From the sequence record OR352938.1: a stretch of 64,000 nucleotides of DNA; one strand, 5' to 3'. Positions within the stretch are counted from its first letter, which is position 1; each line of letters begins with the position of its first letter. This document shows positions 499 to 3,311 of this stretch, one piece after another. A program made the translations under genes and the position numbers. The stretch comes from Escherichia phage AV108. The notes beneath the pieces are model-generated. The model saw nothing but the letters and a program-made list of their open reading frames with translations. It ran no database searches and was not told the origin of the DNA.

Positions 499-3311
499 GC
501 GTGATTGAAGGGATTAACGCAATGGCGACGGATGAACACCCGCTACGTTTAGCTCATCCGTCTACACTAGAAACTAAAATTGATTCAAACGGCATTGAAT
601 GGATTTTATCAAAGCATGATGACAAATGGTATCCTAAAAAGTTTTCTGACTATCTGAAATTAAACAGACCGCAGAAAATAAGGATGCAAAGCACTGATCC
701 AACAAATTATAAGTTCTTTAAAGATAGTGACAATATTCGCACGCGGTATATGCGATTAAAGAACTTGCGAAGGGCGAATATTAAAACTCAGTATACCCCT
801 GAAATGATCGCAGAGTGGAAACGATGCCGTAAAGATATTGTGTATTTTGCCGAAACCTATTGCGCAATTACACACATCGACTACGGTACAATCAAAGTAC
901 AATTGCGTGATTATCAGAAAGATATGCTTAAGATCATGCATGAAAACCGCATGAGCGCACATAAACTCAGTCGTCAGCTAGGTAAAGCACTCGATGTTAA
1001 TACGCCTATTCCTACCAGCGATGGGTTTAAACGTATGGGGGATATTAAAGAAGGTGATCAGATCTATGCGCCTAATGGTCGTTTAGTTAATGTTGTATAT
1101 GCAACGGAATACCAGTATGATCGCAAGTGCTACGAAGTTGTTTTAGATACTGGCGCTAAAGTTGTTGCTGATGCCGATCATATCTGGACTGTATACGAAA
1201 AAGTTGGCAACAAACATGTCAAGCGTGATGTTACAACTCAGGAAATGGTCGATAAGGGTATTACTACCAAAGGTCAATCCAGATTTAAAATCGCTAAGAC
1301 TAAACCGATTAAGGGAGAAACTAAAGTTCTTCCTGTTGATCCGTATACTTTAGGTTATTGGTTAGGTGATGGTCACACTGATGCAGCACTAATCACCCAC
1401 CATAAGGACGATAGCGGCATTCTGACGCATTTAAACGAACAAGGCTATCATACATATACTTTTGCAGATAAACGCAATAGCAACGTTCTCACAACGTCTG
1501 CGCATGGGTTATGGGAAGGACTTAAAACCGCTGGCGTTGCTGGCAATAAGCATATCCCTATGGAATACCAATTCGCTGATATTGATCAGCGAACTGCATT
1601 ACTGCAAGGTATCATGGATTCTGACGGATGCATCAATAAAAATGGTTATGCTGAAATTACATTAAAACTGAAACCGCTTATCGATGACATTTATTCGCTG
1701 TTGTGCGGATTGGGCTTTAAGCCGAAAATGAAAGAAAAAGTGGTAAAAGGTACTGTATATTACAGAATTTCATTTAATGCATATGCAGATAAGGGTGTGT
1801 GTCCGGTTCGAATGGAGCGTAAGAAAGCAAATCTTATTAATTCTTGCGAAGATACAAGAACAGATTTTCTTTTTATTCGTGAAATTAATCCGGTTGAATC
1901 TCGTCCGGTAAAATGTATTCAGGTTGACAGCGAGGATAAACTATATCTGTGCGGTCGTGAATTTATTCCGACTCATAATACTACCGCTGTAGCAATATTC
2001 CTTGCTCACTACGTTTGTTTTAATAAAGACAAAGCGGTAGGTATACTGGCACACAAAGGGTCAATGGCAGTTGAGGTTCTAGAACGTACTAAACAAGCAA
2101 TTGAACTATTGCCAGACTTCTTACAGCCTGGTATTGTTGAATGGAACAAGAAATCAATTGTTCTTGAAAACGGTTCAAGTATTGGTGCTTATGCGTCGTC
2201 TCCTGATGCCGTGCGTGGTAACTCTTTTTCGTTTATCTACATTGATGAATGCGCATTTATTCAAAACTGGACGGATTGTTTCCTTGCAATTCAACCAGTA
2301 ATTTCTTCCGGTCGTGAATCTAAAATGATCATGACCACGACTCCGAACGGGCTTAATCACTTTTATGATATCTGGCAATCGGCTATTGATGGTAAAAGTG
2401 GTTATGTTCCATATGAGGCGGTTTGGCATTCTGTTAAAGAACGTCTTTACAATAAAGCTGATATATTCGATGATGGTTATGAGTGGTCATCTCAGGCGAT
2501 CGCCGGATCTAGTCTTGAGCAATTCTTACAGGAACATAACGCTGAATTTTTCGGTAGTTCCGGTACTCTGATCAGGGCAACCACACTATCAAGATTATCC
2601 TTTATTGACGTTGTTAATGATAACGGGTTTTATCAGTTTGAGAAACCGAAAGAAGGTAGAAAATATGTTGCTACACTAGATTGCTCAGAAGGTCGAGGAC
2701 AGGACTATCACGCATTGCAAATCATTGATATTACTGAATTTCCTTATAAGCAGGTTGCAGTATATCACAGCAATACTACGTCCCATTTTATATTACCGGA
2801 TATTGTCTTTAAATATCTCATGATGTATAACGAATGTCCAGTTTATATCGAGCTAAATAGTACGGGTGTATCTATTGCTAAGTCTCTTGCGATGGATCTT
2901 GAATATGATAATATTATTTGCGACTCATTCATAGATCTAGGGATGAAACAATCCAAAAGATCTAAAGCAATGGGATGTTCGGCACTAAAAGACTTAATAG
3001 AAAAAGATAAGCTGATCATTAATCATAAAGGAACTATTCAGGAGTTGCGCACATTCTCCGAGAAGGGAGTAAGCTGGGCGGCAGAAGAAGGTTTTCACGA
3101 TGATTTGGTCATGAGTCTGGTAATATTTGGTTGGTTAACAACTCAAGAAAAATTCGCCGAATATGCAGGAAAAGACGAAATGCGGATCGCCTCCGAAATA
3201 TTCCGAAAGGAATTAGATGAATTGGGGGAAGAATACGCGCCCGTGGTAATATATGACGGTGCAAACGGCATCGAAGAATATAGGCCGCGTGAAGGTCTAA
3301 CAATGATATAA
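495..3311 (+). CDS. 17: terminase large subunit (T4 gp17-like) interrupted in-frame by an intein
   Basis: 938 aa; residues 1-164 and 496-938 collinear with T4 gp17 (about 610 aa), including split Walker A SRQLGK / [10 protein letters not shown]; 331-aa insert has intein hallmarks. Confidence 0.9.
987..1979 (+). mobile_element. intein with double-motif LAGLIDADG homing endonuclease, inserted in terminase P-loop
   Basis: Insert begins ALDVNT (intein block A with Ala1), ends FIPTHN followed by +1 Thr; two LAGLIDADG motifs ([21 protein letters not shown]); removal restores SRQLGKTTAVAIF. Confidence 0.78.

Follow-up and report, generated by a model that had tools for sequence, protein, structure and literature searches.

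Gene 17 (g17) of Escherichia phage AV108, which codes for the large terminase gp17, carries an insert of 993 nucleotides (nt) within the codons of its ATP-binding loop. We have analysed this insert in a stretch of 64,000 nt from the phage (sequence record OR352938.1), the whole of which we call the window. We conclude with high confidence that positions 987-1979 are a mobile class 3 intein, with an embedded LAGLIDADG homing endonuclease, seated in the Walker A motif (the P-loop) of a Krischvirus gp17, and we are just as confident that the intein is functional. A megablast search against 50,697 phage records places the window in Krischvirus (RB49-like, T4-type phages of E. coli), and the gp17 precursor is identical to WPK33323.1 (Escherichia phage AV108). 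The parts of the gene, all on the + strand, are the following.

495-3311 (+): gene 17 precursor, a T4-type large terminase of 938 amino acids (aa) interrupted by the probable intein (open reading frame, ORF, and Pfam)
495-986 (+): N-extein, 164 aa, ending in the Walker A sequence SRQLGK with Lys at position -1 (T4 gp17 alignment; collinear with RB49)
987-1979 (+): probable class 3 intein with embedded LAGLIDADG homing endonuclease, 331 aa, 37.2 kDa (sequence, homologue alignment, model, Foldseek)
1980-3311 (+): C-extein, 443 aa and the stop codon, with the remainder of the ATPase domain followed by the nuclease domain (T4 gp17 alignment, 167-577; Pfam)

The insert in gene 17

An earlier note on this DNA, made from the letters alone, had proposed an in-frame insert of 331 aa at 987-1979, placed directly after the GK of the P-loop. 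Both the boundaries and the placement hold exactly. The insert occupies residues 165-495 of the precursor, and its junction lies between the Lys and the Thr of the Walker A motif (SRQLGK/T, the slash marking the junction here and below). When 987-1979 is deleted in silico, 1824 nt are left, which is the length of RB49 g17, with 18 nt and one aa of difference. The alignment to T4 gp17 (PDB accession code: 3ezk) falls into two blocks (query 17-165 with T4 20-167 and query 496-905 with T4 167-577) that abut at K166/T167 within SRQLGKT; T4 gp17 thus aligns across the junction and, as the note had said, lacks the element. Among the Pfam models matched by the 938-aa ORF, Terminase_6N (4e-39) and Terminase_6C (4e-23) are confined to residues 496-898, downstream of the insert, and LAGLIDADG_3 at residues 364-422 is the sole match in the first half. 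The Thr at +1 (1980-1982) has a double role, being both the predicted nucleophile of the splice junction and the Walker A Thr of GK-T. The masses that the note had estimated (107, about 69 and about 37 kDa) come out as 106.8 kDa for the precursor, 69.6 kDa for the spliced gp17 and 37.2 kDa for the intein.

Does the inserted protein have the sequence and the fold of an intein? In a phmmer search against PDB sequences, its best matches are the class 3 DnaB inteins MchDnaB-1 (6rix, 2.6e-18) and M. smegmatis DnaBi1 (6bs8, 3.2e-17). These matches fall on aa 2-69 and aa 297-331, the two halves of a HINT domain, and between them the endonuclease region of PI-SceI matches. An AlphaFold2 (AF2) model of the insert, built with 28 homologues as input, has a pLDDT of 95.8 and a pTM of 0.92. 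Compared with the PDB by Foldseek, the model finds PI-SceI at the top (E = 4e-20, template modelling (TM) score 0.77), followed by the TliVMA and PhoVMA inteins, PI-PfuI, and then class 3 DnaB inteins (target-normalised TM score of 0.85 for that of M. smegmatis) and LAGLIDADG enzymes of the I-DmoI type. The model, the structural matches and the block alignment together give a HINT fold with the splicing blocks A, B, F and G; the C-terminal His-Asn is followed by Thr at +1 (IPTHN/T, 1971-1982); and the insertion is precise, in frame and missing with exact boundaries in orthologues. The resemblance to inteins is well past chance, and the identification made in the earlier note is borne out by both searches. 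What speaks against the identification is the behaviour of generic profiles: within the insert Pfam has no intein or HINT match beyond LAGLIDADG_3, and NCBIfam gives weak matches alone, to the intein parts of the RNR, V-ATPase and Rv2578c models. The same weak or missing matches explain the poor annotation of the element.

The splicing residues are located as follows, with the counts taken from the alignment of the insert with the 28 homologues (29 sequences when the insert is included).

987-1286 (+): N-terminal part of the HINT domain, aa 1-100 (phmmer alignment of aa 2-69 to MchDnaB-1 and Msm DnaBi1)
987-989 (+): Ala1 (codon GCA), the first intein residue (sequence)
1128-1130 (+): Cys48 (homologue alignment, 26/28)
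1179-1181 and 1185-1187 (+): His65 and Trp67 of block B, ADADHIW (homologue alignment, 28/28)
1842-1979 (+): C-terminal part of the HINT domain, aa 286-331 (aa 297-331 aligned to class 3 DnaB inteins)
1914-1916 (+): Cys310 of block F, PVKCIQVD, the predicted initiating nucleophile (29/29)
1971-1979 (+): Thr329-His330-Asn331 of block G, FIPTHN (T329 and N331 in 29/29)

Inteins of class 3 are defined by a WCT triplet, whose residue roles have been described (PMC2807308, PMC5050341): residue 1 is not a nucleophile, Trp stands at position 12 of block B, Cys at position 4 of block F and Thr at position 5 of block G, and the +1 residue is Ser or Thr. The insert carries this signature complete (Ala1, His65/Trp67, Cys310, Thr329-His330-Asn331 and Thr+1), and its Ala1 is not the Cys, Ser or Thr that class 1 inteins have at position 1. 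The homologues follow the same pattern. Position 1 is Ala in 21 of them, Gly in three, Gln in one and Cys in one, so that 25 of the 26 visible N-termini are without a nucleophile; His65 and Trp67 (ADxxHxW) are kept in 28/28; Cys310 (PV[KR]CIQVD), Thr329 and Asn331 are kept in 29/29 sequences and His330 in 28/29; and the +1 residue, Thr in AV108 gp17, is Ser or Thr in all 28. The W, C, T and N residues do not vary among the homologues, whose exteins are of at least five kinds, and the homologue inserts begin right after a Lys wherever position -1 is visible, mostly within GK. The earlier note had read Ala1 and the THN end with its +1 Thr correctly from the letters; its suggestion of a non-canonical route for an Ala1 intein is supported, and refined to class 3 by Trp67, Cys310, Thr329 and Thr+1. 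By these motifs the insert should be a class 3 intein, and splicing should start from the internal Cys310.

The endonuclease and its spread in Krischvirus

We turn to the part of the insert that lies between the halves of the HINT domain, and to the DNA that it is predicted to recognise.

1287-1841 (+): LAGLIDADG homing endonuclease domain, about aa 101-285 (Pfam; fold matches to PI-SceI, PI-PfuI and I-DmoI)
1368-1370 (+): Asp128 of LAGLIDADG motif 1, LGYWLGDGH (27/29)
1623-1625 (+): Asp213 of LAGLIDADG motif 2 (29/29)
957-2009 (+): predicted homing site after removal of the intein, CAGCTAGG(T/G)AAA/ACTACCGCTGTAGCA (near-invariant in 8 intein-less relatives)

The two LAGLIDADG motifs that had been noticed in the letters are present, each with its catalytic acidic residue (Asp128 and Asp213). 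The Pfam model LAGLIDADG_3 (PF14528) scores 27.7 bits where the cut-off is 22.5, and Lys188 of the endonuclease is invariant (29/29). The order of secondary structures in the model is that of the pseudo-dimeric alpha-beta-beta-alpha-beta-beta-alpha fold, and Foldseek matches the region to I-DmoI, I-Tsp061I and the endonuclease domains of PI-SceI and PI-PfuI. With these catalytic residues, the freed intein would cut an intein-less g17 at its P-loop codons in a mixed infection, and the element would then be copied in when the break is repaired from the intein-bearing gene. In relatives without the intein, the 60-nt site around the junction hardly varies. Homing of this kind would explain why the element is patchily present among near-identical phages.

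That patchiness is seen across 74 related phage records. The intein is found in 11 of them, which represent ten phages, all Krischvirus with a full 2817-nt gene (MIZ4, MIZ5, FL15, FL04, ELT3, ECD7, kvi, PTE-Eco09, Makalu_002 and Makalu_003). The close relatives lacking the insert, with which the earlier note had proposed a comparison, make up the remaining 63 records; RB49, Phi1, GEC-3S, KFS-EC, Sf20 and many others have a g17 of 1824 nt that matches in two pieces. Even within one species of the International Committee on Taxonomy of Viruses (ICTV) the intein may be present or absent, as in the Makalu phages versus GEC-3S and kvi versus RB49. A tblastn search among isolated phages confines the intein to the 11 Krischvirus records, the next best match being that of Mycobacterium phage LittleE at 38.6% identity.

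Eight copies of the intein were extracted for a comparison of alleles, and all eight are intact. They form three alleles that are 4.3-4.8% apart in nucleotides: A in the window, FL04, ECD7, kvi and PTE-Eco09, B in Makalu_002 and Makalu_003, and C in ELT3. Between alleles, 30-38 codon differences are synonymous versus 7-12 that are non-synonymous. As a separate observation, the 90%-identity protein cluster of the intein-bearing gp17 (window 495-3308) has 53 members, some of them labelled 'Escherichia coli' in NCBI pathogen-surveillance assemblies (contigs to 166 kb, evidently genomes of phages within read sets from bacteria) and others from many Logan and ENA assemblies; the ten isolated phages thus understate how common the intein is in sequencing data.

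Is the endonuclease still active in homing? We think that it probably is, judging from its conserved residues and from the distribution of the element, although the data fit homing without proving it. The competing view, which we regard as unlikely but as the likeliest of the alternatives, is that the intein splices with an inactive endonuclease and is kept by vertical descent and ordinary recombination instead of homing. Decayed endonucleases are common among inteins. The alleles, moreover, are about as diverged as their genomic backgrounds, and long residence with ordinary recombination fits this divergence as well as repeated homing does. The flanks give little help to homing either. Position 983, a synonymous site 4 nt upstream of the insertion, is T in seven of the eight intein-bearing copies and G in all eight intein-less relatives, and it is the sole flank marker that tracks the intein, with ELT3, which has G, as the exception. 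In the C-extein, a block at 2009-2411 around Walker B is 14-20% diverged from the RB49 type while its flanks differ by less than 1%. This block is found in ECD7, kvi, PTE-Eco09 and Makalu_002/003, where it differs from RB49 by 18-20%, and the window, FL04 and ELT3 are of the RB49 type; it is also shared with the intein-less JSE, so that no clean co-conversion tract is seen. With these three points, the divergence of the alleles, the single marker and the shared block, the evidence for recent homing is ambiguous. Against an inactive endonuclease, on the other hand, stand the conservation of both catalytic Asp residues and of Lys188, codon changes in the endonuclease domain that are mostly synonymous (8-18 synonymous versus 3-5 non-synonymous), the variation in presence and absence inside single species, and near-identical inteins (0.4%) that adjoin gp18 genes 6-7% diverged.

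The 2009-2411 block was also considered as a piece of donor extein dragged along by homing. It was rejected as clean evidence, the block of the intein-less JSE being 93.7% identical, and it is centred on the Walker B site, not on the P-loop site.

The proposed splicing route and its possible control

In the route that we propose, gene 17 would be translated as the 106.8-kDa precursor with a split ATP-binding loop, and the precursor should therefore be inactive. Cys310 (block F position 4), positioned by His65 and Trp67 of block B, would attack the bond between Lys(-1) and Ala1 to give a thioester-branched intermediate, from which the N-extein would be handed to the hydroxyl of Thr+1. Asn331 would then cyclise with the help of His330 and free the 37.2-kDa intein, and an O-to-N acyl shift would rebuild the native GK-T bond, giving a 69.6-kDa gp17 that is one residue off RB49 gp17. 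We infer this class 3 pathway from the motifs. The host and source fields of the records describe the intein-bearing phages as plaque formers on E. coli, from several laboratories; because ten such phages have been isolated as viable plaque formers, it follows that splicing must work.

Could a real intein at this site splice by another route? Thr+1 might attack the N-terminal junction directly, as in class 2 inteins of the KlbA type, or some other nucleophile might be used. Ala1 by itself cannot tell class 2 from class 3, and the mechanism is read from motifs. Class 2 inteins, however, have no WCT triplet and use Cys at +1 (PMC2807308), whereas W67, C310 and T329 are invariant across the present family and its +1 residue is Thr or Ser. 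Class 2 is excluded because the triplet is present and the +1 residue is Thr; the nearest solved relatives, in addition, are experimentally established class 3 inteins. A different route is, in our judgement, very improbable.

The weakest alternative, to which we give almost no weight, is that gp17 keeps the insert for good as an accessory domain, or that the insert is removed at the RNA level or skipped by translational bypass: T4 offers precedents in its group I introns and in the bypass of gene 60, but the P-loop is split at GK/T with the Pfam terminase ATPase model matching after the insert only, near-identical phages lack the insert with exact boundaries, the same element occurs in unrelated enzymes (dCTP deaminase and PD-(D/E)XK nucleases), the fold is HINT plus LAGLIDADG, and the reading frame is continuous and under constraint at the protein level. 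A search of Rfam 15 with window positions 1-4000, on both strands, has no match at E <= 1, intron RNA included. This removes the alternative of a group I intron, and an RNA intron or a translational bypass was rejected on the same ground.

For the class 3 intein itself there is a further, more speculative question, that is, whether it might act as a conditional switch on DNA packaging and not as a mere passive parasite. Cys48 aligns with Cys48 of M. smegmatis DnaBi1, and the C48/C310 pair is kept. In DnaBi1, Cys48 and the block F Cys form a reversible disulfide under oxidative stress (PMC6195587), and the block F Cys binds inhibitory zinc (PMC6195587, PMC7360933). By analogy with DnaBi1 such a switch is conceivable in gp17, though we think it improbable. 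If it were real, the redox or metal state of the infected E. coli cell would govern how the essential terminase ATPase matures and, through it, the phage burst.

A literature search found no description of an intein in the gp17 of Krischvirus, RB49-like phages or ECD7, and according to a 2024 paper coliphage inteins had not been reported (PMC11162368). The novelty lies in the host, a T4-type Terminase_6 enzyme of a cultured coliphage; the intein class is already well understood, and the AV108 intein leaves knowledge of inteins or terminases in general unchanged. Its value is practical. A class 3 intein with an apparently intact endonuclease sits in an essential packaging ATPase, and near-isogenic intein-free relatives (RB49 for one) are at hand, which makes a convenient system for intein homing and co-conversion in phage crosses, and for the class 3 mechanism and any redox- or zinc-conditional splicing, scored in vivo by the plaques formed. 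It also offers a class 3 intein whose splicing has to be completed in the tens of minutes that a phage lytic cycle takes at 37 °C.

There is a value for annotation as well, since public records misname or under-describe the protein. The intein-bearing gp17 is called 'terminase large subunit', 'terminase family protein' or, erroneously, 'replicative DNA helicase DnaB'; the last label stands in three GenBank phage records (FL04, 3001-5817; PTE-Eco09, 24-2813; and FL15), and FL04 is the only record with an 'intein-containing' note. The DnaB label likely arose from k-mer or similarity annotation that caught the resemblance of this intein to DnaB inteins.

Other mobile elements, wider relatives and known inteins

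Two further features of the window lie outside g17.

1-498 (+): gene 16, terminase small subunit, overlapping the start of g17 by 4 nt (ORF; orthologous coding sequence annotated gp16 in RB49, ECD7 and others)
17767-18519 (+): 250-aa ORF with the GIY-YIG motif YVYEIKNLVNGKLYIGKHS, a candidate free-standing homing endonuclease of the Seg type (between inh and uvsW; absent from RB49)

Right downstream of the GIY-YIG ORF, the segment 18524-28028, from uvsW through the baseplate genes, is 73-80% identical to RB49, against about 97-98% elsewhere in the window. This pattern fits the idea that nuclease genes mark the boundaries of genetic exchange (cf. PMC10448857).

A second and different element interrupts g17 in some close relatives, namely TB34, vB_Eco_SAP and kaaroe, and also in JK32, GoldenSnicker and phiS (TB34 locus 2263-3550). 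It is 1288 bp long, not a multiple of 3, directly follows the Glu of Walker B, and divides g17 into a pair of ORFs. In the first ORF the N-extein is followed by CVSGLTKVTLRDKLTGEIKEYTMLEV, a short IntN (about 25 aa), to which a nuclease similar to TnsA and endonuclease I (about 300 aa) is fused. The second begins with a 106-aa IntC ending in VESHN/C and continues into the C-extein; this IntC has a match (E = 1.4e-11) in 6dsl, the engineered 'Cat' consensus atypical split intein. Relatives of this element were found by tblastn in 72 phage records, 40 of them from Campylobacter phages. An atypically split intein of the gp17 terminase is known from metagenomes (Dassa 2009, PMC2677866); the present element is similar to it and comes from cultured coliphages. 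The corresponding site in the window is 2249/2250 (YIDE/CAF in Walker B), and IDEC is uninterrupted in AV108. In phages with the diverged 2009-2411 patch, the IDEC region is changed to IDEA-AFISAWQDAW, which removes the Cys+1 that the Walker B split intein would need, so that the patch may serve as an immunity allele towards this split intein.

How far does the P-loop intein reach beyond Krischvirus? A homologue search covering 5.8 billion proteins found 227 relatives; those of full length align with 100% of the query at 31-39% identity, and one more at 69%. An intein scan of IMG/VR gave ECD7 as the sole close relative, other loci being 27-37% identical, and no additional T4-like carriers. One metagenomic T4-like gp17 fragment (P0001) has an intein 69.5% identical at the same site in exteins 62-76% identical, and in two more distant Terminase_6-type proteins (P0002, P0003) the identities of intein and extein drop together. 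This joint drop suggests that the intein lineage has long been resident at this site in T4-type terminases. At GK/S or GK/T sites, the wider clade occurs in Terminase_1 terminases, GpA-type terminases and many dCTP deaminases; PD-(D/E)XK nucleases also carry it, at DWK/G. In bacterial and metagenomic dCTP deaminases it is very common, always at EGK/SSLGR, which mimics the P-loop junction (homologues P0009-P0120, for the deaminases and the nucleases together). This range of exteins echoes the switching of actinobacteriophage class 3 inteins between exteins via similar nucleotide-binding sites (bioRxiv 10.1101/2025.01.02.630785).

Among inteins of known structure, the mycobacterial DnaB mini-inteins (DnaBi1, 6bs8; MchDnaB-1, 6rix) share with the AV108 intein Ala1, the WCT triplet, Cys48, insertion in an ATPase P-loop, Ser or Thr at +1 and the HINT fold, with about 40% identity over the splicing blocks. 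They differ in being about 140 aa long, without an endonuclease, and hosted by a bacterial helicase. The best structural match for the whole molecule is PI-SceI (the yeast VMA1 intein), which likewise has a HINT domain with an inserted two-motif LAGLIDADG endonuclease; unlike the AV108 intein, it is of class 1 (Cys1, Cys+1), has 454 aa and an extra DNA-recognition region, and is about 16% identical. By its published description, the class 3 prototype, the Bethlehem DnaB intein (PMC2807308), is also phage-borne, of similar length (341 versus 331 aa), and ends in Thr-His-Asn before Thr+1. Its His65 and Trp67 have the same numbering, with Cys320 in block F and Thr339 as the counterparts further on; it has Pro1 after Gln(-1) where the AV108 intein has Ala1 after Lys(-1), and it lies in another host protein at another site.

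The closest parallels in host and site come from actinobacteriophages, in which class 3 TerL inteins are well documented (PMC5050341; bioRxiv 10.1101/2025.01.02.630785). The K/T position of a P-loop has been termed 'classic' for inteins, and the inteins of mycobacteriophages are found chiefly in TerL (PMC5050341), in agreement with the earlier note's statement that such inteins are known from other phage groups. The TerL inteins of these phages (TerL1-a; TerL/Cas4, e.g. LittleE) share with that of AV108 the K/T Walker A site, class 3 and the LAGLIDADG endonuclease, and the LittleE intein, aligned over its full length, is the best phage match outside Krischvirus. The switching of these inteins between TerL and PD-(D/E)XK/Cas4 exteins is mirrored by homologues P0083, P0106 and P0111. 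The actinobacteriophage TerL hosts, however, belong to the Terminase_1 family, whereas the AV108 intein sits in a T4-type Terminase_6 from an E. coli phage, and the identity is below 40%; in the Terminase_6-type enzymes of mycobacteriophages, inteins occur solely at site f in the C-motif (PMC5050341). The metagenomic P0001, on a 2-kb contig labelled 'MAG: Clostridium sp.', has the same site as AV108 (NLSRQLGK/ALDVDT...IPTHN/TTAVAIYL) and so represents an allelic intein in another T4-like lineage, though it is uncultured, partial and far more diverged than the Krischvirus alleles.

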